DNA of 64,000 bases from Ascidiella aspersa (Eukaryota), in NCBI GenBank assembly GCA_963924565.1, contig OZ004608.1:7068001-7132000 (forward strand), in the 5' to 3' direction. Numbering within the stretch: the stretch's first letter is position 1; every line of letters begins with the position of its first letter. Under the pieces are notes generated by a model that was given only the letters and a program-made list of their open reading frames with translations, made no database searches and was not told the origin of the DNA. Both the position numbers and the translations under genes were made by a program. Positions 1,419 through 20,531 of the stretch are shown here, piece after piece.

Positions 1419-4400
1419 TTTTCACAAGGAAGACAGAAAATATGACGGGACTTGGAGAAGGCAATAGGCTTTTTAGAGCTTTCGCTTGATAGCCCGTTCG
1501 GTAGAAAGCTGGTCGTGTAAACCAATGGTTGGTAGTTCGAATCTTACCAAGGTTTTTCGAAACATTTCTCCTTAAATTGACCGTATCTATTCTGTTCAGT
1601 CGAAATTTCAAACATCTTTTTTGATAGCTCAATTGATGGAAGAGTGGTTGTGTTACCCAACGGCCGTAAGTTCAAATATCACCGAAGATATCTGACAGTT
1701 TGGAAGTTTAAAGGCGGCAAAGGAATAAATCGATCTGATTATGTCGAACGAGTGTGAATTACTTTATATCACATTAAGAGTTGTAACGTTACCCCAGGGC
1801 TTTGATTCGAATCCTTATAACATATATGATAGTTCTCTCAGTATGGCAGTATACATGTAAGGTTGTCGTAAGTTAATTTCAATTAAATATACGAGTTATT
1901 ATAAATAACTGATTACTGCGTTGTATAAAATAATATTACAAAATTGTGTACCTAACCAATGCTAATCGGTGCGAATCCACTTGTAAACCACCCTAAATAA
2001 ACATTGGCACGGTAAAGCCATCTGCTTAGTCTCATTAAAAATCCAATTTAAAAGTCATGAAATTAAATTAATTCCCTCAATCGAACGTTGTTTAAAAGTA
2101 CCACCAGGAGCGGAAAGTTGGTTATTTTATCAAGGTTTTTCAAGCAAAAACAACCTACACATATACGAACTTATAATAATTGAATAAAAAATGTCTCCTA
2201 GAAAATTTCACATTCAAAATAGGTTTGTTTTCAAAATAGGTTTTGTTTGTTGAAACATATGCACTCCAAACAAAATGTTTATAGGAATATGCATTGTGTT
2301 TGCATTATTGTTCCCGATTTTGTTTCGCGTGGAACAAAGTTTGTTTTGAAAGTACAAATTTTGTTCCGGAAAAACATTCGGAACATAATTCATCGCATTT
2401 TTTTCAGATTGAGCGTAGTTTTTACGAGCCTAAACACGATCAAAATACTTTATTTGGAACATTTGAAATAATTCAGCCCTTGACATACGCATATCTGACG
2501 GTTAAGGGACGAATCTTTTTTTAAAGATTTCTACGACGTTAGAACAAACAATTTGTTGCTTACTGCAAGTTGGTTGTTCCTTGTGGTATAATATGACAAC
2601 GAATAGGTTTAAACTAACCTTCTCCTCTTTCTCTTCTGTAGTAGCATATGATTATTGTTGCGATGTTGCTGCACGCGGCGCATATCAATAGAAACAATTT
2701 TACTTTATCCATGTTTGTTCAATTATAGAGAAATGCTGTTAAAACAAGAAATTGTTCTGTTTAACTGAAACACCTTTGTTTTTTGCTGCATTTTCTGTAG
2801 ATAGCTTAAGCCCTATCTCTGCAATAATTTTATCCCATGCACGTAGAATATAAGCTTTTTCAAACAAACTTTTGCATTTGTGTTTTTGTTTATATATTTC
2901 CTTAAAAAAACACTTCTAGTCTGAAATCTTCTATTAGATTTCCTACTAGCCTATAAACAACCAACCCAAGCTTTAAAACTGTATAGGACTTCGCTAAAGC
3001 GCAACTATACTAACAATGCCCATCTGTCTGATTAATTATCTAAAATATGAGTATGAATTTAAAAATAAATTAAGAACCTGACAGATCAGCCTTGTGTCTT
3101 AAGTCTTATCAATATTTCTTTCAGTATTTAAATTAGAAAATGTTAAACACTGTCCAACGTTTTCTTGTGGCACTGGCGTAAGCTGGCTTTACCATTGTTG
3201 CATTTCCGCGCTTTTCAACAGTAATATTGCGGAAACTGTTAAGGTTCGCTATACGGTCTGGTCCCTACATAGACCACATATTGCCCGTATAGAGTGCAAC
3301 AAAATGTTGCCGCTTCTTCGCAACGTTAATGTATAGGCACGTTATGTACTTGACTTGATTTTTTTCTTATGTGATAACATGATTAACATAACTGATTGTG
3401 TTGTACCGATTATTTTATCGTTCGCGTGAGCGTATGCGTTAGTGTTTTTTGTTTTACATTCGTTGTTGGGTTAAAACAAATTCGTTTGTGACTGCCTAAA
3501 ACAAATTCGTTTTGTGTTCAACATATACATGAAACAAAACATTGACTCTGGGCACGATCGTGCTGTTTGTTTTTTCATATTTTGCTGATGCAAAAGCAAT
3601 ACCACTTTAAGTTTTTACCAAGTTAAAAAAAGTATGTAGATCACGATTTTTACAAACGAAAATTAAAATTATACCTAAAATCCTGCATGAAAACTAACAT
3701 TTCCTTCAATTCAATTAACATAAGTTGTATGGCTTAATAGTAAATTTCAAAGCAAAAGGGACGCGTAAATCAACAAATATGATAGGCATAATGACGTTCC
3801 AATACGCGGCTAACAACTTATATATTCATCAGAACATTGACTGATAAACAGTCGCTTTCAGGCAATATATTAATCTATACAGCACTTAGGTCTATGCTTG
3901 GATCTCTAATGTATCTATATAATGACGATCAAATTCAAATAGGTAAAACATATTAATGGATAATAAGTATAAGAACAGGGCGTATCGAAACGTCTTTATC
4001 AATATAATGTCGATTTTCGTTATCAAGCTGCATTACAGATGCGTGCATAGCGTAACTAAACCTAAATTATGTTTTCTCTTAGACTTATTTACTGCCGTTT
4101 GGCAATTCAGCGCTTCGCACAAAACCGGACCAACGTTTTGACAGACTTTGGCAAGCTACACCGTTTATATATAAGGTCGCCAATATTGGTAACGTAGGCG
4201 AACGAAAAACCTCGCGAGTTGCACTCAATCCAAACAATTTTGCCTACAGACGTATACGAGGGTTTTACGAGCAAATGAAGGAAAGCAAGTTCTGATTGAC
4301 ACAAGTAAAAGCATCTCCATTGAGTTGCAAGTGCTTTTATAGATTGAATGGTTGCCTAGCCACCAATGACGTCTTGATCATGACGTCTTGACTTTCAAAA

Positions 4401-7479: not shown

Positions 7480-7485
7480 CATATA
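7480..7485 (+). repeat. Target-site duplication, left copy (CATATA)
   Basis: CATATA immediately precedes AGTAGT and is repeated at 24110-24115; 6-bp TSDs are typical of Polintons. Confidence 0.95.
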
Positions 7486-8102
7486 AGTAGTGTTTTCCTT
7501 GCGCGAAGTGTGCCGTGTGCCCAGGTGTGCCCAGGTGTACGGAAGTGTATTCCGGCGTATTCAGGTTACATCCGGTAAGCAAAAGTAAAATTGAAAAGTG
7601 TTCAAAAGTGTGCAAAAGTACCCTGAGGAGCAAAAAAGCGTCTTTGGGTGAAAAAAAACGTTTTTATAAGTTTCCGGAAGTGAAGGTGGAAGTGACAAAA
7701 AAGTGACAAAATGTGTGATACGGTAAGGTAAGGTAGTTCTCTACGTTGCAATGTTTCTGTTAGGCCCAAAAGATTTTTTGTAAAATTTTCAGAAGAGTCA
7801 GAAATCTACTTTTGCGCGAGGTGTGCCAATTTCAAAAAGTGACCTTTGCACGAAGTGTGCCAAAAATATCGTCGATTGGTAAAGTCGAACTGTGCATTGG
7901 TTGTCTTGTTTGTTGTGGCTGATTTGGGCTCGTTCACAGAGCAGAGAGGAAACAGTGTTTCCCTATCAAGACTGGTTTCCTAATTATAGCCAGTATTGGT
8001 TTACTATTGACGTAAAGAGCAATGAGATGGTATTTTATATTTAGTTCATTAAAACTTTAGTTGTTTGGTAATTTAACTTGAAGATGATGGATTTTATTAT
8101 TG
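7486..8102 (+). repeat. Left terminal inverted repeat (~617 bp)
   Basis: Reverse complement of 23493-24109; about 12 differences by manual comparison. Confidence 0.95.
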
Positions 8103-8214
8103 GCACACAAAAAAACTTACATTATCCAATTCATTTTGTTTATTTCTAAATATTTGTGTTTTAAATATACCATTGACTGTATAGTTTTGCTTGACGTTTA
8201 CAGAACGTTAAGTT

Positions 8215-8345
8215 GAGAGGAAACACTGTTTCCCTATCAAGACTGGTATCCTAATTATAGCAAGTATTGGTTTGCTATTGAGTTATAGAGCATGGAATTG
8301 TTATTTTATTTTTTTTTCAGTTAATTAAAACTTACGTCGTTTGGA
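8215..8345 (+). repeat. Subterminal diverged direct copy of the inner TIR segment 7944-8070
   Basis: gagaggaaaca(c/g)tgtttccctatcaagactggt.tcctaattatagc.agtattggttt.ctattga occurs at both 7944 and 8215. Confidence 0.85.
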
Positions 8346-8536
8346 AATATAATGTATTTTGTTGATGACACTGAAAAAAAAAGCAATCATTTTCAATCTA
8401 TATTGTTTATTACCAACTATTTTTATTTCAAATACAGCGACACTATTTACACGAAAAACACAACAAAAAATCATGACTTTAAACTTTCAATTTATTTACA
8501 TTCCTGTTACATTAATGTTGTTATTATATAAAACAG

Positions 8537-9187
8537 TTATTTCTTGATACTCCTTTTTTGGTTTTTGATGGAGTCTTTCATGTCCGTCCACATAGACTGC
8601 AATAACTTTACCAGTTCATTAAATTGTCTTCTTACATTGGAATCAACTAATCCGTCTGCTAGTGGTGCAACTTCGTAGAACTTTATATTGGGTATTAAAT
8701 ACTTTAAGTAATTTTTTGGTGCATAAATATTTTGTACCCGTGATTTTAAAATTAAACCATCTTCTTTAATTTCAGCAGCAGTCGTTTTGATCTTGGATTG
8801 AATAGTACATTCACTATCATCTATACAAGTGGGCCAAAATAGAACTTGAACAGTTGTATATCCATTTTGGCTCTCTTTTTGTTTAGGATACATAATTACA
8901 AAAGGTGACGAAACGTCCATTAATATCTCAACTATCTGTTTGAGTTGTCCGTGATTGAAAAATGCCTTGCCTCGTACTTGAACACTGATCGTAACCATTC
9001 GAATATTCGATTCGTCGTCAAAAAGCGAACGTTTTGAACGTATCTTTCTAAACATTTCACGAATCGGTTTTCGCTTTATCGGCCCAATACAACTTGGCTC
9101 TTGACGTTTTGGCGGAGTTTCAAACAACTGAGAATCCTGTAAAAGTTGAGAGTCCTCATTACATAAATCTAATAAAAGCTGAGCCAT
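8537..9187 (-). CDS. Polinton accessory ORF, 216 aa, unknown function (TPPK and KRSLF motifs; possible degenerate HUH/origin-binding fold)
   Basis: ATG-initiated 216-aa ORF in AT-rich DNA with TATATA ~40 bp upstream (9225-9232); divergent from pPolB. Confidence 0.8.
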   Translation of the reverse strand: MAQLLLDLCNEDSQLLQDSQLFETPPKRQEPSCIGPIKRKPIREMFRKIRSKRSLFDDESNIRMVTISVQVRGKAFFNHGQLKQIVEILMDVSSPFVIMYPKQKESQNGYTTVQVLFWPTCIDDSECTIQSKIKTTAAEIKEDGLILKSRVQNIYAPKNYLKYLIPNIKFYEVAPLADGLVDSNVRRQFNELVKLLQSMWTDMKDSIKNQKRSIKK

Positions 9188-9280
9188 TTTGTTTGACTTG
9201 TGAAATTTTGCTCACAGACACAGATATATATACTGTTTGATGAATGAAAAAAAAACATCTGTTCTTGGTGTGTAAAATGG

Positions 9281-9590
9281 TGTGGGAAAATTTGTTTAGT
9301 ATACATTATTTTCTCATAATTTAAACAAACAATTAAATTTTTGTTTTTATAGATATCTGCATCTGTTTTAGGCATGCCTGGGCAAGCCAAAAAATGCTGT
9401 GGGAAAATTTCTTTAGTATACATTATTTTCTCATAATTTAAACAAACAATTTAAAATTGTTTTTATAGAAATCTGCATCTGTTTTAGGCGTGCCTAGGCA
9501 AGCAAAAAAGCTGTGGGAAGATTTGTTTAGTATATATTATTTTCTCATAATAGAAACAATCAATTTAAAATTGTTTTTATAGAAATCTGA
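9281..9590 (+). repeat. ~116-bp tandem repeat (~2.7 copies) between divergent Polinton genes
   Basis: tgtgggaa.attt.tttagtata.attattttctcataat... units start at 9281, 9398 and 9512. Confidence 0.9.
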
Positions 9591-9949
9591 ACAATTCATT
9601 TTAATAGAAAATTGTCTTTCAAATAGTTCCCAGGGATATTTTTCTTTAGTATTAAATTGATGTGTAACGGCTTAAATATGCCATCTTGCGACAGAGTAAA
9701 ATGACCAACGATTTTTTTTTTTTGCGACTGTCATTATTCAATAGATAACCGTCAGAACGGCGCCACATGTATCCAACTTCCGTTCCCACAGAGATGGTGA
9801 GTGAAAACAGTTGTGGATCTCTATAAATGTATGAGGTTTTTTTTGTATATTGACATATTGAAAGCAAAAACTATTTAGATAAGTTTCGTTACTTTTTAAT
9901 TTAATGGAAACAGGAAAGTGATACCTTTCGTTATTTTAACTTAGCAAGA

Positions 9950-12900
9950 ATGAATTGTGAGCAAGGTACGTTAATAGAGATGTATTTTTATTTTTAAATT
10001 AGTATCCATATTTTGTTTGCTTTATTGATCTGTTATTTGCTAGTAAAATAATGAAATTATAATATTGAATATAATAAAGTAATTTAAATCTCAGATAAAA
10101 AATGAACTTAAACAGTGTGAAGATTACTGCCGAGATCTAGACTTTTTTTTTGAAACAAGATTTAGTTATATTATAATATATGTTATAATAAAGTAATTTA
10201 AATCTCAGATAAAAAATAAACTTAAACAGTGTGAAGATTACTGCCCAGATCTAGACTTTTTTTTTTTGAAACAAGATTTAGTTATATTATAATATATATT
10301 TTAGGCTTACAAGATGATTTGTCACTGCAAAACAACGGTATTTATTTATTTATTTGTATTTGAAATATAATAGAAGTATTTGTTTTTTGTTTGTTTCTGA
10401 ATAGTGTGAAGTTTTCAGAGATTACGTTAGGTGATATGGTGTGAAGGAAAATCACTTACCGAATGCTAAGCTAAATTATATGCGTTGTGATAGGATTCTT
10501 ACATTTATGTATTTGTTTTTTAGCTGACTATCTTGTACATCAATCATGGTTTATTGAGGAAATGAATAAACCCTTTTTGGTGGAAATTTGTGGTTAGTTT
10601 TGTAACCGGTATTTTTTTAGGTGAAAAAAAAAAAACTAAAATTTATTGTCCATCAGAAACTCCAGAAAAGCAATTACCACAGGAAAATGAAATCTTTTAT
10701 GACCCTAAACCATTATCACTTTTGGATTTTACTAAGCAAGATAAAGTTCCTAAAAATATTGATCAAGTTTTGGATTTTGCAGGTGTGTTTATGTACGTAA
10801 TGGCTTAGTGACTAATCTATTATGAGTTTTTCTTGCTTTGTATTTCAGTTAAAATTGGAACCAATAATGCAGAGAAGGAAACTAAACCTGAAACGAAAAA
10901 TGTGGAGAAGGAGAGTATATCTAAACTTGTAACAAAAAATATTAAGAAGGAGACTATACCTAAACAGATGCCTCTCATCATAGATCTCACTAACCAAGTT
11001 AAACTTCCAGACAATATTGATCAAGTTTTGGATTTTGCAGGTGTGTTTATGTACTTAATGGCTTAGTGACTAATCTATTATGAGTTTTTCTTGCTTTGTA
11101 TTTCAGTTAAAATTGGAACCAATAATGCAGAGAAGGAAAGTAAACCTGAACTTAAAACCAAAAATGTAGAAAAGAAAAATATACCTGCAGGTGTTTATAT
11201 TTAGGATAGTTCTATTGATTTTATAGCTTTGCTTTTGAATATTTATAAACATACATATTTAAATGAGATATTTGTGATTTAACTGTTAAAAAGTTGTTTG
11301 CTTGTATGTTTCAGATAAAGTCAAAGACAAAACTCATCTCATTATTGACAAAACAAATCAAAATAAATGTAGACTTTGTAAAAGTTATTTTGAGAGCAAA
11401 GCCATGTTACAGAAACATCATATTTCAAACCACCCAAAGCTTCAGTGTAAACTTTGTAATTACTGGTAAGACAATTTTGTATTCTTATATATTATTAATT
11501 TTTTTTGGGTTTAATTATTCACAACTCAAATTAAAATTGATTTTTTTTTTTCATGATAGCTTTTCATCTGCGTACCGAAAAAGACAGCACAGTGATAAAG
11601 CATGTGAACAACGGAGAAAAAGGTTTTGTTCTAAGGAAACTATGAACATCTCTGATTTATCTCCTCAAAAAGGCCAAGGGTTGAAAGAAAATTTAATCGT
11701 TCAGGATAAAATTGAAAAACCAACAAAACCTAAAAAACTGTAAGCTTATCGTTTTTTATTTTTAGTTATCGAAACATTATTCTATTTAAATGTTTTTTTT
11801 TTTTTTTGTTTTTTTTTTTTATTTGTCTCTGTATTTAGAATTTCTAAACGAAGTGATGACAAAAGAAAACGTAATCAAATTATAGATTCAAATTCATCAG
11901 ATAGCACAATTGATTTTCAAAAACATACAGCAATACCTTTTCACAAGAAAAAGTTAGTTTTTTTGTTTTTTTTTCAGTGTATATATGCATTTTTTATTGT
12001 AAACTCTTACATTATTCTATTTTGATGTCTTTTTATGTGTCTCTGAATTTAGAATTTCCAAATACAATGATGACAACAGAAAAAATATATCAAGCAAAAA
12101 ACGTAATCAAATTTTAGATTCAGACTCATCAGATAGTTCGAGCGATTTTCAAAAACTTTTAAAACCTTTTCATAAAAAAAAGTAAGCAATTTTTTTATGT
12201 AAGTCACACATCATGATTTTTTTTTTACCTAATAATATGTTTTTAGGAATTCGAATCGAATGATTAGCAGTGACAGTTCTGATTTTAACTCTCCTCAGAA
12301 AGGCCAAGGGTTGAAAAAAAAATTAAACGTTCCTGATGAAGTAACTCAAAGACCAAGAAAACTTCAAAAAATGTTAGTATATGTCATTTTTTATTGTTTA
12401 CACTTACACTATTCTATTTTAATGTTTTTTTTTTTATTTGTTTTTGAATTCAGAATTCCTAGACGGAGTCGTGACCAAAGAATAAAATTGTTAAACAGAA
12501 AACGTAAACTGTTGGATACTAGGTAAACCAATATTAATTAATCTTTAATATAATTTTTTTTTTTTTTTTTTATTTTAAAAAATATGTTTTGTTTTAGTGT
12601 TCGAAACAGATTTTCTGAAGATAGTGATATACTTTTCTCAACAATACCAAAGAAGAATCAAACGTAAGTCTAGGTGATAAATGATTTATATTAAATAGTA
12701 CCTTTCAATTAACATAATTCTATTTTGTAGTTCAATTCCAACTGAAGTGGCACACAGTTCAAACTATACACCAATGGATACAAATGACAAAGATGAAACT
12801 TCTACGTCTAAATTTTGTGACTTGCCACCAAAGAGAAAGAGATCGAAAAGGTGATTATCACTATATTATTTATTTCATTAAGAAATGTAATTTTTTGTAA

Positions 12901-15900
12901 GAAAAAATAACTATTCAATTTTTTTTTTTTTTTTTAGAATTACAAATCCTATATGTCCAGAAAACAGATCCGATATTGTTCAACAACATTGGGATAGTAT
13001 TTCTACTTCTACATCACTGAATACCATGATGTCAATTTTCAACTACCAATTACCACTTGAAAAATCTATTGACGATATCACAAAAGATATTTTAGAAGGT
13101 ATGTCTCCATCCAGCTTCAAGATAAATACAAGTTTTGGTTTTGTTATGAGTAACACAATGTCACTTGTGAACCAGTATTTCCATGCATCCCCAAACAATT
13201 TTACTTTCTATTTGATGCCACCTGTTGTTCGTTGTTTTGAAGATCTCAAAAATATATTGCAGTCAGTTCTAAATAGTGATGTTTTAGCTAAACTTTCATT
13301 GCACCGTGAAGATACAAAGTGGTATTTAACAGAACTCACAAATGTTACTTTTTTTACCTATCGTCTAAAGGAGTTTCCCTTAATCGGTTGTTCTGTTATT
13401 TGTTTACCCTCTTTCTTGAAGCGTAGAGGTATCCTTGGTTTTACAAGAAACCACTCTAGGAAACAGATTAATGACAACCTCTGTCTTTTTAGATGTTTGG
13501 CAAAAGGTTTAAAGTGTGATGATGCTAATCTTGAAAAAAAAACATTAGAATACTTCTCTCAGTACTATCCTGAACAAAATGTAGACTCATTTCCAGGTGT
13601 ATCTTTTAATGAAATTTCAAATATTGAACAGTTTTTCAAAGTTCGAATTACTGTGTTCTCAGTCGAAAAAGTTAACGAAGAAATTATTTGGAAAGTAAAA
13701 CGTAGATCTTATGTTCCCAAATCAAATGCAAATTTTATATCTTTTGATGTAGTACAATATGAGAATCACTTTTGTTTTGTTCAATCTATTGAAAGCATCA
13801 CCCATAACTTTGCATGTCAATTTTGCAACAACATGTTTAAAAAACCTTATCTTGTTCTAAAACATGAATCATCATGTGAAATCGGTGTCAAACAAACCTT
13901 TCCTGGAAAAATATTTCGAGTTAACCCTAATATATACCTTGAGCTAGAGCAAAATGGAATTTTAATTGCCAAACAATTGCAATATCATCCATTTTTCATT
14001 ATTTTTGATTTTGAGGCTTTCTTTCCAAAAAATGTCAGCAGTCTTCCAACAAACACAGGAAAAACAACTTTTACACAATGTTACCAACTTTTAAGTGTTG
14101 CAATAACATCAAATGTTCCAGGTTTTGATAAACCTGTGTGTCTAATTTCAAATGGAAACTCTCACCAATTAATTTGCAATATGTTGCATTATTTTTTTGC
14201 AATTCAAAATAAATCTGAAAATTTGATGCTCGACAAATATAGTCATGTACTTGACGAATTAAATTGCAAGATTGATGAAGCCAAATCTAACGAACCTGAT
14301 TTCAAAATGAAAAACCACCCTTTGGTTAAATTAAAAGCAAAATTTTCAGCTTTTATAAAGGCAATACCAGTGTTAACATTTAATGGATCAAGATACGACA
14401 TTCCATTATGTTTAAAATGGCTAATTCCACTATTGCAACAATTTGATCCGATTCTTTTTTGCATTAAGAAACAGAATTCCTATCTTTGCCTTCAAACAGC
14501 CAAATTTCGTTTCTTAGATCTATGTAACTTTATATCACCAGGATATAATCTTCGAAGTTTGCTTCTTGCATTTAACACTGAACAGCAAAAACTATTTTTT
14601 CCTTACGAATATGTTGACAATTTAGATAAATTACAAGACAGGTGTCTTCCACCAAGAGAGGCATTTCGAAGCAGTCTCACAAAAGAAACTATTTCAGAAG
14701 ATGACTACGATGAATGCTGTAAGTTATGGAAAACTCAAGGTATGAAAACTTTTAGGGATTATCTTATTGCTTACAATCTACATGACGTTGAACCACTTAA
14801 ACAGGTTGTTATTAAGTTAATTTCAATCTATCACTCACTGAACATCAATTTTTTGTGTGATGGGGTGTCAACCCCTGGTTTATCACAACGACTTATGTTT
14901 CAATTTGTTCCACCAGATATCTATTTCTCTTTGTTTCCAAACAAGCATGCTCACATTAATAAATTGTTTCGCGACCAAATTGTTGGAGGTCCATCAATTG
15001 TTTTTACACGTTGGCATGCAGCAGGGGAATCTGTTATACGGGGAGATGTCTATGGTGCTACTGCAAAAACATGTCAAAGTGTTATAGGGTATGATGCAAA
15101 TTCCCTTTATTTGTCAGCTTTAATGGGTGATATGCCAACTGGAAATTACATTCTTCTCGAGCGAAAAGAAAATGATAAGTTTAAATTTGAAAGGTCTCAA
15201 ACAACTGGATATCTTGCTTTACAGTGGATGACATTTTATGCAATGCAAAATGATATATCATACATTCAACATCAATTTAATGGTGGAGAAAAGCAAATTG
15301 GTTCTCGTAATATTAAAGTAGATGGGTATATAGCAGATCAAAAAATTGTACTTTCGTTTTTGGGTTGCTTTTTTCATTGCTGTCCTAAATGTAATATCAC
15401 GAAAACCTTTAAGGATCGTGACTTTGAAAAAGTTAGGGAAAAAGACAAAGATATTGCAGCCTATATTCGAAGTTTTGGTTATACTCTTATTGAAATGCGT
15501 GAATGTACTTGGGCTTTTCAATGTAAGACTGATCCACTTGCCATCAGATTTGTGTCACACTATCTATTGACATCACTCCAGCCCCCAAAACCACTCACAC
15601 AAGAAAATATTCTTCGTGGGTTCCAAAATGGAGAGTTGTTTGGTTTTGCTTTGGTGGATATTTTTGTCCCACCTGGTCTAAGAGGTAAATTTAAAGAGTT
15701 CCCCCCAATTTTTAAGAATGCAGCCATTTCACGTGATGATATTGGAGATAACATGAAGCAATATGCAATTGATAATGATCTATTATCCTATCCCACTCGA
15801 TATCTTATAAGCAGTTATAAGGGTGATAAAATCCTCTTAGCTTCCCCTCTTCTTGCATGGTATATGACAAATGGATTGGTGGTCACATTTGTTCACAAAG

Positions 15901-16058
15901 TTATACTCTATGAACCCAAACAATGTTTCAAAACATTTTGTGATAAAGTAACGACTGAGCGACGGAAAGGTGATCTTCATCCAGACTCCCAAATATTAGC
16001 AGATTTATGGAAATTACAGGTAAAACCTCAAAAAAGTATTAGTTGTTTGATATTACTT

Positions 16059-16099
<41 letters not shown>

Positions 16100-16995
16100 T
16101 TAAATAGATTTGTAACTCAATACTATAAGGGAAATTACTACTAATATTAATGAAAATCTTTAATTTGTTTTTTCAGGGTAACTCTGCATACGGAAGGACA
16201 TTGCTTAATAAAGAAAAACAGGAAAATGTTACTTTTTTAAGTGAGGAAAAAACCACCAAAGCTATGAACTCCAAACATTTTCGCAATGCTACACAATTGA
16301 GTGACAACGTGTATGAAGTACACAGTAGAAAACGTTCAATCGTACACAATGTTCCTATACAGATAGGTTCAATGATTTTACAGCTCGCTAAACTTCGTAT
16401 GCTAAGGTTTTACTATGATTGTCTTAACAAATATATTTCGCCGCAAAACTTTGAACTTGTTCAAATGGACACTGATTCATTATATTTTGCACTTTCTGAC
16501 AAAAATTTGGATAATGTAATTATTCCTGAAAAACGTGCAGAATTTTATGGTGAATATGACACATGGTTTCCTTCTATTGCTTGCCCATTGCATTTTAATG
16601 AATTTGTCGCTACCAAAACTGCTAATCTCCCCTTTAATGCTTCTCGTGCATGCTGTCTTACACATTTTAAACATGAAAGTCGGACCCCTGGTTTGTTTAA
16701 AGTAGAGTATTCTGGCAAAGCCATTGTAGCTCTGAACTCAAAAACATACTTTTGCCATGGTGAAAAAACTAAACAAACATCAAAAGGATTGATTAAGAAG
16801 CAAAACAAATATTGCATTGACGATTATTTTAAGGTTCTATCAGAAAAAATAAATGTTTGTGGAGAAAATCGTGGATTTCGTTACGTAAATCAAAAGATAT
16901 ATAGCTATCAACAATTTCGACAAGGCTTGAATTATTTTTATCCTAAACGAAAAATTCATTCTGATGGTATAAACTCAAGCCCATTAGATATTTAA
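9950..16995 (+). CDS. polB: Spliced protein-primed family B DNA polymerase (pPolB) with long N-terminal extension; predicted 16 exons, ~1791 aa
   Basis: Predicted exons: 9950-9965, 10305-10337, 10524-10592, 10657-10782, 10849-11040, 11107-11190, 11315-11465, 11560-11739, 11839-11952, 12053-12181, 12247-12372, 12454-12522, 12598-12663, 12731-12850, 12938-16019, 16177-16995. All introns are GT-AG and phases are consistent. The first three exons are the least certain. Confidence 0.75.
10071..10297 (+). repeat. ~115-bp tandem duplication inside the predicted first pPolB intron
   Basis: ataataaagtaatttaaatctcagataaaaaat...caagatttagttatattataatata occurs at 10071 and 10186. Confidence 0.9.
12938..16019 (+). 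CDS. polB: pPolB main exon (terminal-protein region, vOTU-like protease, zinc finger, 3'-5' exonuclease, palm motif A, Vsr-like insert)
   Basis: ExoI IFDFEA, ExoII FNGSRYD, ExoIII YNLHD, motif A YDANSLY; ends WKLQ at donor CAG|GTAAAA. Confidence 0.95.
16177..16995 (+). CDS. polB: pPolB last exon (rest of motif B, motif C, thumb)
   Basis: Acceptor ttttttcag|GGT gives GNSAYG (completing KLQGNSAYG); motif C MDTDSL; RTPGLFKVE; KTYF and SKG; stop at 16995. Confidence 0.95.
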   Translation, partial: GNSAYGRTLLNKEKQENVTFLSEEKTTKAMNSKHFRNATQLSDNVYEVHSRKRSIVHNVPIQIGSMILQLAKLRMLRFYYDCLNKYISPQNFELVQMDTDSLYFALSDKNLDNVIIPEKRAEFYGEYDTWFPSIACPLHFNEFVATKTANLPFNASRACCLTHFKHESRTPGLFKVEYSGKAIVALNSKTYFCHGEKTKQTSKGLIKKQNKYCIDDYFKVLSEKINVCGENRGFRYVNQKIYSYQQFRQGLNYFYPKRKIHSDGINSSPLDI

Positions 16996-17413
16996 AAAGC
17001 ATATACTTTGTTGTACTTCTGTAGTAATTGTGAATTTTTAATGAAACTGTTTTGTTATGTATTACTAAATCGCTTTATAACCAGAAAAAAGAAAACAGTG
17101 AAAACATGTAATTGTGATGACATTGATGGGAAAAGTCTTATTTTATGTTGTTGTTTTTTTGTTTACTTCTTACATAAAGAATCACAGATTAAAAGAATTT
17201 ATAAAATGAATATGGTTGTTTGTATGTTTTAAGGTTCTTTTCAAGTTATTCAATCTTAGGAAGAGTATATGGAATGTTGATGTTATTTTAAACTAAATTT
17301 ACAATTATGTGAGGCGTTAGCAGCTGACTGAAAGGGAGATTCCCCAAATCATTGAAGTGTAACAAAAAAAATGACCAAATTGTTCATCCATATTATTTTA
17401 ATCTGATTAGTTT

Positions 17414-17884
17414 TTACAGAAACGATTCGGTTACATAGTTATACACAAACTCATCATTGGCTTCCAAATCAGAATTAAAAATATTTACAATGTCTGGCAT
17501 AGCAATACCACGACTACGAACTAAAATAAAAAAACAACTATAGAATCCACAGAATGTTGACGTTAACTCTTGTAAAGTTTTTGTGTTGTAACGAAAAATG
17601 TAGGATGATCGCGAAACAAAACGTGATATATCATTTCCAATTGGATAACAACCGAATGAGTCAAAGTAATCACACTCTCCATTAGAATTGAAATAGACCG
17701 CCACCCAGTGACTTCCATGTTTTTCGGACGAATCCAAATTAATTACATACGATTGAGAAGTTTTGCTTTTTTTAATTGAATAAGTGTTCAGTCTTCGTAG
17801 TTCATCACTTGCAAAAACACCACGAAATGTCTGATTTGCTATTGGATCATTTTGAATAACATTACGAATTTCAATACTATTCAT
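17414..17884 (-). CDS. Adenain-like maturation cysteine protease
   Basis: VINLD..GSHWVAVY (His), YFDSFG (Asp), LQ...FCG (Gln, Cys): the adenovirus/Polinton protease catalytic signature. Confidence 0.93.
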   Translation of the reverse strand: MNSIEIRNVIQNDPIANQTFRGVFASDELRRLNTYSIKKSKTSQSYVINLDSSEKHGSHWVAVYFNSNGECDYFDSFGCYPIGNDISRFVSRSSYIFRYNTKTLQELTSTFCGFYSCFFILVRSRGIAMPDIVNIFNSDLEANDEFVYNYVTESFL

Positions 17885-17886
17885 AT

Positions 17887-19185
17887 TTATGAGTTAAAAT
17901 CAAATGAAACACTCCTTGACCTATCAATTTCTAATAAAGAGTCAAATTCAGTAAACACCACAATATTAACAGAATTTGGAAGAGCAGTTCCAAACTTACA
18001 CTCTAAACGAATAGTTCCGTGTCTTATCAAATCAGTGTGAGAAGAATCACAAGAATTTGGAGTTAAATCAAAGGCATACAATGTACATCCATCAATAAAT
18101 TCTGACTTTGATAAATTGTGTCCACCATTTCGAAAAAAATTTCCTGTTGCTAAAAACAACGCAAAATAAGAACGAGCTGTGTTTTGACGAGAAAAGTTAG
18201 GTTGATAAGCTTTGGAAGGAATTTGTTTTCCGTCTTGGTAGAGAGCGAGAAAATTTAGGTTATAATTTTTAAAATAAAAAGGATTTTTATCCAATTGACC
18301 ATTAAAAGCAGCGTTGTCTACTAAACCAATAATAACTCGTTTAGGGATTTGACCAGAAATAATATTTTTCACTACAGTAAGATCACCACTAGGAATCGAA
18401 AAAACTTTTACATCCACACGAGAAATAGGATATTTAACTGTTCCACGTTCAAGGGCTTTCAAGTGGCCCATTAGAACAGGTGGAGAAGGTCTTATCTTGC
18501 GTGCAAATAAGGCTACACTTTTAAGATTGACTTTGAATTCTCCATTGTTTGCAGACATAAGAGAAAATGTATCTTTACTTCTTGTAAGTCGTACCTTAAC
18601 GTCCACTCCATCGATTAAATAGCGAGGTTGAAAACCCATGTCAAAGTGAATCTTTCCCAGCATCTCAACTATTCGACTGTTACGAGCCAAAAATTTTCTA
18701 TCACGAAAACCTTGATTGGCATTCGTAAGTGTATCATACTGTTCAGCAACGTCCTTTTTCCACAATGCAGACGTAAGGTGAGTCTTTTTCGCATCGCTAC
18801 CAAAGTTAAGTAATGCTTCCAGGTAAGCTCGGTATGGGTAAGTATTGTTTGAAGCAGTTATCATTTTGTTGTTAAACGATACATCAACTTGACTCCATAA
18901 GGAATGAAGCCAATAGTTAACTGGTGCTACAACTGCATCTTCTGCTAACTCTGTCCCGTCGGCATTCACAACACGTGCACAACAGTACAATTGAACACTA
19001 GAGAGATCAAGGTAATCACTAGTTCCAGCTAAATCGAATTCAATCGTTCCACTATCAGTCAACGTTGAAATCGGTAAATACTCGACAGAATATGAGTCTT
19101 CCACGCTAATTTGAGTTGGTTTAACTGCAAACAGATCCAACTCCTCCATTAGACAATGACAGGAGCGATCGTCTTTAAGTGCCAT
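17887..19185 (-). CDS. Major capsid protein (double jelly-roll, Polinton PY/hexon-like)
   Basis: SCHCLMEELDLF...PTQ, YPYRAYLEALLN, NPFYFKNYNL and LYAFDLTP motifs typical of Polinton MCPs; ATG at 19185 with TATA and CCAAT upstream. Confidence 0.92.
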   Translation of the reverse strand: MALKDDRSCHCLMEELDLFAVKPTQISVEDSYSVEYLPISTLTDSGTIEFDLAGTSDYLDLSSVQLYCCARVVNADGTELAEDAVVAPVNYWLHSLWSQVDVSFNNKMITASNNTYPYRAYLEALLNFGSDAKKTHLTSALWKKDVAEQYDTLTNANQGFRDRKFLARNSRIVEMLGKIHFDMGFQPRYLIDGVDVKVRLTRSKDTFSLMSANNGEFKVNLKSVALFARKIRPSPPVLMGHLKALERGTVKYPISRVDVKVFSIPSGDLTVVKNIISGQIPKRVIIGLVDNAAFNGQLDKNPFYFKNYNLNFLALYQDGKQIPSKAYQPNFSRQNTARSYFALFLATGNFFRNGGHNLSKSEFIDGCTLYAFDLTPNSCDSSHTDLIRHGTIRLECKFGTALPNSVNIVVFTEFDSLLEIDRSRSVSFDFNS

Positions 19186-19223
19186 GATTAAGTGAGCCAA
19201 TAATAATATTTGACTTGTGTTGT

Positions 19224-19268
19224 CTTATATATGTCTTCTCAATCAATGCAAAAAATAAAAACACCAAT
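19224..19268 (-). promoter_or_regulatory. Putative MCP promoter (inverted CCAAT + TATATAA)
   Basis: Minus-strand ATTGG at 19264-19268 and TATATAA at ~19224-19231, about 40 bp before the MCP ATG, in the only sizeable intergenic gap of the block. Confidence 0.5.
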
Positions 19269-19338
19269 CAGAAACAAATACGGTAGCTCAACCAGTTAAC
19301 TATCCTCAAAAATAGAACAAACAATTCAGTAATCGACA

Positions 19339-19743
19339 TTACTGGAATATATCAGATTTTTTTGTTTTTTTATTTTTTCGTTTATTCTTTTTTCTTTTCT
19401 TTGCAGCAGGTTCGCCTGGCGGATGTGAACCTTTTCGTTTCTTTTGAGAAAAGAATGAGTTGGTTAACTCTCGTGTTCTTTTTATAGCAGAGTTTCTAGG
19501 ATTTTGTCCTTGCATTACATCGGAAGCAAAATCAATTCCAGATTTTAAAACTTGTTTTCCAACTGATTTTGCACCAGAACGAATTATCGGTAAAATAGAA
19601 CGCCCAATTGTTGAAAAAATAGACCCTAAACCATACCCTCTTTGCAATCCCCCAGAATAAATTGGAAAACCACTCCCTACTTGTGAAAGATAATATTTTT
19701 CATACTCTTTAACATCCTGTTGACAACAGTAGGGTTGCTTCAT
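19339..19743 (-). CDS. Conserved Polinton core-like virion protein with QxGxG motifs and basic tail
   Basis: YYLSQVGSG...QRGYGLGSIFSTIGRSILPII amphipathic segment; KKRKKNKRKNKKTKK tail; lies between penton and MCP. Confidence 0.8.
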   Translation of the reverse strand: MKQPYCCQQDVKEYEKYYLSQVGSGFPIYSGGLQRGYGLGSIFSTIGRSILPIIRSGAKSVGKQVLKSGIDFASDVMQGQNPRNSAIKRTRELTNSFFSQKKRKGSHPPGEPAAKKRKKNKRKNKKTKKSDIFQ

Positions 19744-20531
19744 GCTAAATCGAAGAGACGTTGTCGTTTTCGAAACTTAAGGGTAACGGTAACAAGCCCC
19801 GAAACAAATGGTATGACATTGCCAAACACATCTCTTATAAGTATTTCGATAGAAGAAAATGAGTTTCGTTGAAGACGATGATATATTGGAAAAGGAAAAC
19901 GATGGTAAATCATTTCACCACGTTTCGTAGTAATTGGAATGGTCTCGAATAATGGGACTTCACAATCGCCCACGATACGTGGTTCAATAATATCCGAATA
20001 AACATACAATTCATTAACTCCACGGCGAATATCTGTTGCTACATCCCCACTATATCGCCTTCCTCCATTAAAAGTTGTTTGTTGAAAACCTAACATTGAA
20101 GCAAGTTTAACAGATAAATTTACACGACTACCATCTGGTGAAACCTTTAACTCAGTTTTTCGCGTAAGAGAATTAAACTTAAAACGGAGACGAACCCTTG
20201 AATCAAAGATTTCTGGAGAGTTAGTTAATATTTGTAAGTCTGCGTCTTCAATCAGCTTATTAAGGTATTCCATGAATTCCGTTTCATTTTCGTAGTGTCC
20301 ACCTGGGAGGAATAATTTTTCCTCCTCACCATTTGATATTGAAGTACGAGAGAGAAAAACCTCTTTATCCATAACAGTAAACCAGGAGTGTGGGGCTTGA
20401 AATTCAATCAAACCAACCTCCCATAATCCATTAAGAGTTATTGTTCTTGGGAGTTTCGTTACGTAACTGGTTAACGTATTTTTTGGATAATATTTCAATG
20501 AGCTGTTTGACGGAAGCGTGATATGAAACAT
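19740..20531 (-). CDS. Minor capsid protein (penton, single jelly-roll)
   Basis: FHITLPSNSS...NT...KLP...WEVGL N-terminus; LYVYSDII..RIVGD; SIEILIRD..GNVIPF..G.VTVTLKF C-terminus. Confidence 0.88.
   Translation of the reverse strand: MFHITLPSNSSLKYYPKNTLTSYVTKLPRTITLNGLWEVGLIEFQAPHSWFTVMDKEVFLSRTSISNGEEEKLFLPGGHYENETEFMEYLNKLIEDADLQILTNSPEIFDSRVRLRFKFNSLTRKTELKVSPDGSRVNLSVKLASMLGFQQTTFNGGRRYSGDVATDIRRGVNELYVYSDIIEPRIVGDCEVPLFETIPITTKRGEMIYHRFPFPIYHRLQRNSFSSIEILIRDVFGNVIPFVSGLVTVTLKFRKRQRLFDLA

Follow-up and report, generated by a model that had tools for sequence, protein, structure and literature searches.

The DNA polymerase gene of a full-length Polinton/Maverick of Ascidiella aspersa is transcribed into a long spliced mRNA that encodes, in this order, a leader with two zinc fingers and a basic/acidic spacer, a terminal-protein (TP) domain, a vOTU protease, an internal finger, an exonuclease and a polymerase. 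A second, short mRNA very likely arises by alternative splicing. We interpret the leader as a zinc-binding module of an Alpha-class protein-primed family B polymerase (pPolB), expressed from two mRNAs and with a DNA-binding or nuclear role, a reading to which we give a probability of roughly 0.6; that the fingers are real and fused to pPolB is practically certain. In what follows, the window is the whole stretch of 64,000 nucleotides analysed.

The element and a repeated motif in its terminal inverted repeats (TIRs) are located as follows:

7486-24109, no strand: full-length Polinton/Maverick of 16.6 kb, delimited by AGTAGT/ACTACT ends and inverted arms
7500, 7813 and 7847 (within 7500-7861), plus strand: three copies of a TIR motif, a putative binding site

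The inverted arms (7481-8102 and 23493-24114) are 100% complementary over 405 nt, and CATATA forms a 6-bp target duplication at 7480-7485 and 24110-24115; the long TIRs, AG..CT termini and 6-bp duplication that define membership in the Polintons/Mavericks are all present. The motif is mirrored at 24095, 23782 and 23748, giving three copies per TIR. The minus strand encodes an integrase with a chromodomain (20743-21852; Pfam rve, E = 2e-13, and Chromo, E = 2e-10), an IVa2-like packaging ATPase (22836-23507; Adeno_IVa2, 27.4 bits against a cut-off of 21) and an adenain-like protease (17414-17893; Peptidase_C5, E = 6e-4, slightly below the Pfam cut-off). TIRs, 6-bp duplication, rve-chromo integrase, ATPase and protease are shared with known Polinton and adintovirus elements. 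Two further ORFs, 17887-19224 and 19740-20540, are open and gave no match in a Pfam scan; they are candidates for the double jelly-roll major and single jelly-roll minor capsid proteins. Small minus-strand ORFs at 19339-19776 and 22496-22894 may correspond to two accessory genes known from Beta-class virion modules, the cupiennin-like and the GasderminX gene, which would here be paired with an Alpha-class polymerase. On the left side, a divergent ORF of 224 codons (8537-9211, minus strand), which lies outside the RNA coverage and has no convincing Pfam match, adjoins three tandem units of ~115 nt each (9273-9589).

The polymerase gene has the following structure:

10562-16995, plus strand: pPolB gene, 14 exons and 1761 codons from the ATG at 10562 with no internal stop, defined from exon phases, RNA junctions and X3 contig 11
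10657-10782, 10849-11040 and 11107-11190, plus strand: exons 2 to 4, duplicated low-complexity leader exons ahead of the fingers (repeat D3, 175 nt, 93%), with joints of 8, 19 and 31 reads
11466-11559, plus strand: phase-2 GT-AG intron of 94 nt (GTAAGA..ATAG) within finger 2, seen in X5 reads and in X3 contig 11
16020-16176, plus strand: last intron of the long form, phase 0, within polymerase motif B, seen as a loose end of X3 contig 11

All 14 exons keep the frame across the 13 introns, and the frame of exon 1 is open back to an acceptor at 10523, which means that the true ATG may lie further upstream. This structure differs from that of intact vertebrate Mavericks, described as intronless in the accessible text of PMC8097293. 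The RNA evidence comes from two sources. Run X5 is a stranded RNA run chosen by its species label; ~6% of its reads were analysed, and 529 were placed on the window. Its first mates are nearly all from the minus strand, and the RNA is therefore plus-strand. X3 lacks the introns and is therefore derived from RNA. In X5, the intron at 11466-11559 is crossed by 22 reads with 12 different starts, seven further introns between adjacent exons have 8 to 33 reads each, and two more are backed by loose ends. The joint from 12850 to 12938, which connects spacer exon 12 to the TP/polymerase exon, is covered by 8 reads. Contig 11 of X3 (5032 nt) consists of exons 5 to 9, 265 letters corresponding to exons 10 to 12 plus 10 nt, positions 12948-16020, and the last exon. 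It thus connects the finger exons with the polymerase in a continuous frame, and the fusion to pPolB proposed by the first-pass annotation of this DNA, which had been made from the letters alone, is confirmed.

These joints bear directly on whether the fingers belong to pPolB or to a separate upstream gene for a Ziftr- or Oncoid-like regulator. Such stand-alone genes are reported for adintoviruses, as zinc-finger Ziftr genes in the available part of 10.1101/2024.03.25.586562 and as Oncoid genes (CXXC), typically located upstream of PolB, in that of PMC8502044, and the short form discussed below amounts to a protein of this kind. In our element, by contrast, the fingers are spliced onto pPolB, with 8 reads joining 12850 to 12938 and contig 11 passing through in frame; in related loci, 19 of 38 have the fingers in the very ORF that encodes TP; and a search of the 12 leader exons, each taken singly, found no L-x-C-x-E, the motif that accompanies CXXC in Oncoids. 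A separate finger gene as the sole reading is ruled out by the RNA joints and contig 11, and we regard the idea as extremely improbable.

Several other features upstream of TP were observed. A few X5 reads at 9600-9814 end near a strong donor at 9797, which suggests that the gene has another exon on its 5' side and that its promoter lies ~800 nt before the first coding exon that is certain. Exon 3 (10849-11040) is joined by its end to its own start in 25 X5 reads and in an X3 contig, and four reads skip this exon. The depth of the DNA run X1 is doubled over it (~700 vs ~350), and therefore most copies probably have an extra tandem exon unit, with back-splicing as the alternative. A 7-nt deletion at 12809 is present in 4 of 25 RNA reads, indicating that broken copies are transcribed too.

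The fingers and the spacer that follows them are:

11368-11433, plus strand: finger 1, C2H2, residues 163-184, from its pattern, a Pfam zf-C2H2_4 match below the cut-off and ESM Atlas neighbours
11446-11465 joined to 11560-11605, plus strand: finger 2, C2HC, residues 189-210, split by the intron, from junction reads, X3 contig 11 and the acceptor test
11606-12850, plus strand: basic and Ser/Asp-rich spacer of ~250 residues, the remainder of exon 6 and exons 7 to 12, partly duplicated (repeats D1 and D20), from composition, joints and contig 11

The first-pass annotation had read a C2H2 finger followed by a C2HC finger across 11466-11559 in the spliced frame, and had staked this model on the cDNA; both the pattern and the RNA of X5 and X3 agree with it, showing the predicted junction and an open frame. 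The finger-bearing exons are exons 5 (11315-11465) and 6. Finger 1, located entirely within exon 5, is C-x2-C-x12-H-x4-H; counted from the second Cys, positions +4 and +10 are the classical F and L, and the finger conforms to the classical pattern C-x2-4-C-x3-F-x5-L-x2-H-x3-5-H. The Pfam search that had been recommended succeeded in part, in that finger 1 does match zf-C2H2_4, but with 18.1 bits (E = 0.004) it remains below the gathering cut-off of 27. Its nearest ESM Atlas neighbours are C2H2 clusters (0.96-0.97, a weak result with low recognition), and the single-sequence AF2 model of exon 5 is uninformative (pLDDT 53). Finger 2 is C-x2-C-x12-H-x4-C, with F at +4 and K at the position where L is usual, and departs from the classical C2H2 pattern; the Cys of the codon split by the intron is not one of its four ligands.

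The 12-residue spacing from Cys to His had been taken as independent support for the splice, and rightly: among the 17 AG sites located 50-400 nt past the donor, a single one completes finger 2, and it is the acceptor used in the RNA. A profile built from the fingers of relatives scores finger 1 at 22.9 bits, finger 2 at 14.2 and the unspliced read-through at 5.5. In the six unspliced frames of the 64-kb window, the strict finger pattern occurs twice, both times in pPolB (finger 1 and the internal finger at 13815). We considered a chance motif, which is rejected by the rarity of the pattern in the window, the acceptor test and the comparison of relatives with shuffled leaders. The fingers are missing from the ORF track, as had been stated: finger 1 lies in a stop-to-stop frame of 59 codons and is therefore not in a track of 60-aa ORFs, and the 158-codon ORF over the finger region reads exon 5 out of frame.

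The nuclear-localisation-like basic and Ser/Asp-rich repeats described after the fingers are also present, as KRKR in exons 7 and 12, SPxK words, a K/R content of 41% in exon 10 and an S/T content of 21-28% in exons 7, 8 and 12. The leader as a whole comprises ~470 residues from 12 exons ahead of TP, different from the protein of the TP-vOTU preprint (10.1101/2024.03.18.585575), which starts at TP in the part of the text available. The fingers lie ~260 residues before TP, compared with a median of 38 in relatives, a median biased to intronless genes; duplication of short exons (repeats D1, D3 and D20) accounts for the long distance here.

Although the fingers had been presented as special to this element, the analysis of related proteins and loci indicates a widespread and little noticed family trait of Polinton pPolBs. 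We pooled 173 relatives (27 and 150, with 4 shared) and dropped the 7 whose alignment stopped short of TP, leaving 166. Fingers precede TP in 71 of these, and all 71 are among the 96 relatives with a leader of at least 60 residues. By leader length, fingers are found in 0 of 70 relatives with fewer than 60 residues, 26 of 46 with 60-119, 26 of 30 with 120-249 and 19 of 20 with longer leaders, compared with 80 of 4800 shuffled leaders; the short leaders are probably cut at introns. The relatives are ~30% identical in the polymerase and have 1 to 8 leader fingers with widely varying linkers. It had been asked whether the Cys and His residues are conserved in related elements; the finger motif is kept and the finger sequence is not. 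At the DNA level, 80 loci were fetched, 12 with less than 600 nt upstream were dropped, and the remaining 68 were collapsed to 38 non-redundant ones. At 30 of the 38, the coding strand has fingers in the 3 kb that precede TP, compared with 5 of 38 for the other strand; at 19 loci they share the ORF of TP and at 11 they are separated from it. Three of these 11 have a break inside TP, and introns therefore do not explain every separation. Of 15 loci examined, 10 have an acceptor-like site immediately ahead of TP, and one locus (L029) appears, from its sequence, to have the layout of our gene, with a finger exon, short repeated exons and TP. The leader of one relative (P0072) also has a bHLH DNA-binding domain, and two others (P0023 and P0073) have an added NADAR domain. 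Scans of IMG/VR found no relatives.

Some database entries named "C2H2-type domain-containing protein" are in fact Polinton pPolBs: A0A7D4VFN9 of Drosophila-associated adintovirus 2 and the Clavelina entries CAK8697126/7 and CAK8675227. They share the TP-vOTU region with our gene (Foldseek E = 1.5e-17), and the Clavelina models have 1 to 3 leader fingers before TP. They differ in that their names are automatic labels only and in that none of 13 Clavelina models is a finger-only form that ends inside TP.

Downstream of the leader, the exon-13 frame encodes the following domains:

12966-13364, plus strand: TP (D1) domain, residues 10-142 in exon-13 numbering, from an AF2 model and weak little-finger/PAD matches
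13400-13800, plus strand: vOTU protease domain with Cys182 and His277 (exon-13 numbering), from a structure match to OTUD1
13815-13877, plus strand: third, internal C2HC finger directly after the vOTU domain, from the strict pattern; lost from the short form

The AF2 model of the first 400 residues of this ORF has a mean pLDDT of 89.9 and consists of a TP-like and an OTU domain. The structure search with the TP domain retrieved Y-family little-finger/PAD domains with weak scores (Z 5.0-5.8), which is the match class reported for TP in the available text of 10.1101/2024.03.18.585575. The best match of the vOTU domain is OTUD1 (Z 8.1, rmsd 3.5, 115 aligned residues), followed by many further OTU domains, and Cys182 and His277 are invariant in 26 of 26 aligned sequences. 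The internal finger is found in 146 of 170 relatives, its four ligands are invariant in 119 of 119 aligned sequences, and the accessible part of the TP-vOTU preprint (10.1101/2024.03.18.585575) does not mention it. As a single Pfam query, the whole 1070-aa exon-13 ORF had no match, and a 400-aa part (window 14001-15200) matched PF03175 with E = 4e-15 and 56 bits, which identifies a protein-primed family B polymerase. In the available text of PMC8502044, the Alpha-class adintovirus PolB is defined by an OTU domain together with pfam03175; both are present, and by this definition the pPolB studied here is an Alpha-class PolB. It has the OTU fold, PF03175 and the TP-like domain before vOTU in common with the Alpha-class adintovirus and Polinton pPolBs described in the consulted portions of PMC8502044 and 10.1101/2024.03.18.585575.

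Two observations concern the polymerase itself. The stretch at ~15300-15530 is probably a VSR-like endonuclease insert: in relatives it weakly matches Pfam Vsr or bears that name, and in this pPolB it has no Pfam match. HNH and VSR inserts are described, and no leader fingers are noted, in the parts available of 10.1101/2023.08.22.554363 and PMC10748475. Introns in or beside motif B occur here at 16020-16176 and in three relatives, at ~8845-8932 (L006), ~9238-9311 (L041) and ~3110-3365 (L073); they lie at three different positions within two codons and are present in 3 of 22 non-redundant loci, and four related proteins (P0008, P0010, P0020 and P0039) end at the site. The pattern suggests that introns were gained repeatedly at this site. 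Introners are known from dinoflagellate elements, according to the accessible text of PMC11957031.

As judged from their sequence, the leader fingers probably bind DNA, and the basic words of the spacer would be nuclear localisation signals. It is possible, and in our estimate unlikely, that they instead bind proteins (ubiquitin, SUMO-modified or chromatin partners) alongside the vOTU deubiquitinase. TGEKP is the linker consensus of Kruppel-type DNA-binding arrays, and the linker between our two fingers has 4 residues and is not of this type. Helix positions -1/+2/+3/+6 are S/A/M/K and S/Y/R/Q; with these residues, the 4-residue linker and no L in finger 2, the pair seems ill suited to reading bases. 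Y-family polymerases include C2HC ubiquitin-binding fingers, which favours binding to proteins, as do a finger 2 that is C2HC and lacks the core Leu, the 74 of 188 leader fingers of relatives that end in Cys (some of which match zf-C2HC_2), the highly variable finger number (1-8) and linkers, and the hydrophobic words IIDL and VLDF of exons 2-3, which we take to resemble SUMO-interaction motifs. The fingers of relatives nevertheless have the C-x12-H spacing, the core F (144 of 185) and L (125 of 185) and the R at +6 (83 of 185) of the classical DNA-binding type; 124 of the 185 have R or K at -1 or +6 of the helix, and many of their arrays pass the gathering score of PF00096. The internal finger has the same bias for R, which therefore separates DNA and protein roles poorly. 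If the leader fingers bind DNA, the motif repeated in each TIR is a candidate site, and it could as well be a site for a host factor.

TP primes replication, and the vOTU domain is hypothesised to cut TP off, with the cut placed between TP and vOTU in the yeast plasmid pGKL1, in the available portion of 10.1101/2024.03.18.585575. If the cut were made there in our protein, the leader would stay on TP and hence on the 5' ends of the replicated DNA, where it would help the polymerase to load on the terminal origin and would carry the genome to host chromatin or anchor it there.

The first-pass annotation did not include an alternative splice by which the finger region would become a protein of its own:

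13099-16176, plus strand: alternative intron from the donor AG/GTATGT to the last-exon acceptor, from 13 X5 loose-end reads

Among the loose ends listed, 13 X5 reads, at a depth of 23, stop matching at 13099, and the consensus of their remaining letters maps only to 16178. The alternative intron removes most of TP, the vOTU domain, the internal finger, the exonuclease and the palm. The donor is of phase 1 and the acceptor of phase 0, and the joint therefore leads to an immediate stop and a predicted protein of 517 residues, which keeps the fingers and the basic-repeat spacer and loses all catalytic domains; in the AF2 model, the break follows TP residue 53 and precedes the domain's central sheet. 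The donor at 13098 is the only AG/GTRNGT site of the 3.1-kb exon, and such words occur at 0.02 per 420 nt in the polymerase genes of relatives. The depth of X5 agrees with this splice: upstream introns have ~26 junction reads each, the depth is 23 at 13092 and 11 at 13184, and the skipped core averages 8.3. The DNA run X1, from an animal other than that of X5, is flat (391 vs 416). The short form thus represents about half of the transcripts in X5, the one run in which it is seen and of which ~6% was read. X3 contig 11 crosses 13098 unbroken, and the short form is therefore rare or absent in X3; its ratio would differ between the samples, from about half in X5 to undetected in X3.

We consider it very likely that the short mRNA is a true splice product. 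A non-autonomous copy with an internal deletion, present in the genome of the RNA individual, would give the same reads, and X5 does sample several copies, as the 7-nt deletion at 12809 (4 of 25) and many variant letters indicate. The ends, however, are exactly a consensus donor and the long-form acceptor, with just 3 shared letters, as is typical of splicing, and the depth of X1 shows no drop, with X1 record 4 spanning the site, albeit in an animal other than that of X5; we regard a deleted copy as improbable.

The significance of a true short mRNA is less clear-cut. It is quite possible, if short of even odds, that it is a cryptic accident or host-imposed silencing, in which a lineage-specific donor cuts the polymerase output and the short protein has no function. 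The donor is not conserved, since a strong donor word in the TP region is present in 0 of 35 relatives (the 38 loci less 3 whose match missed TP), the joint from 13098 to 16177 shifts the frame, and the short form is not seen in X3. A mere accident is, on the other hand, at odds with a splice carried by about half of the X5 reads and with the fact that no donor variant is listed in four runs, meaning that the donor is tolerated in an otherwise intact element. A stop codon in the last exon should escape junction-dependent decay, and the stop of the short form is in the last exon. A regulatory role of the short protein is a tentative proposal. The short form would divert transcripts from the polymerase and, more speculatively, may be a competitor that takes up the same sites but does not prime, or a transcriptional regulator, by analogy with the truncated P-element protein. 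That a Maverick replicase is under alternative splicing, with a polymerase-less finger protein that binds the ends or the promoter and keeps the element latent, is doubtful in our estimate.

The Drosophila P element produces an 87 kDa transposase and a 66 kDa repressor by alternative splicing, as reported in the accessible text of PMC7776569. In both systems, one gene of a mobile element encodes an N-terminal domain that binds DNA (THAP in the P element) or probably does so (the fingers here), and a splice choice keeps this domain and drops the catalytic part. The proteins are unrelated, the P element retains an intron whereas an internal donor skips 3 kb here, and repression is proven for the P element, whereas here the mRNA joint is shown and repression is a proposal.

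In the Polinton, Maverick and adintovirus literature available to us in part, no fingers fused before TP and no polymerase-less splice form were found, and genome maps in supplements may already mark the fingers. The words "zinc", "C2H2" and "splic" have 0 occurrences in 10.1101/2024.03.18.585575; the available parts of PMC5803895, PMC11296320 and 10.64898/2026.10.13.758929 contain nothing relevant to leader fingers, and the accessible text of PMC3671162 describes C2H2 proteins of virophages. The published domain plan, as far as the consulted text goes, starts at TP, and most relatives with a recoverable leader carry fingers ahead of it; ORF-based surveys miss them because introns cut them off. 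This copy contributes direct RNA proof that the fingers are fused to pPolB, together with a candidate splice switch. Leader fingers by themselves are common in the family; what merits further attention is the candidate splice that skips the polymerase. The leader and the short form bear on two questions, the silence of integrated Polintons and the loading of the polymerase onto their termini. If the proposal is true, the splice would be a latency switch in endogenous Polinton viruses, comparable to the repressor of the P element.
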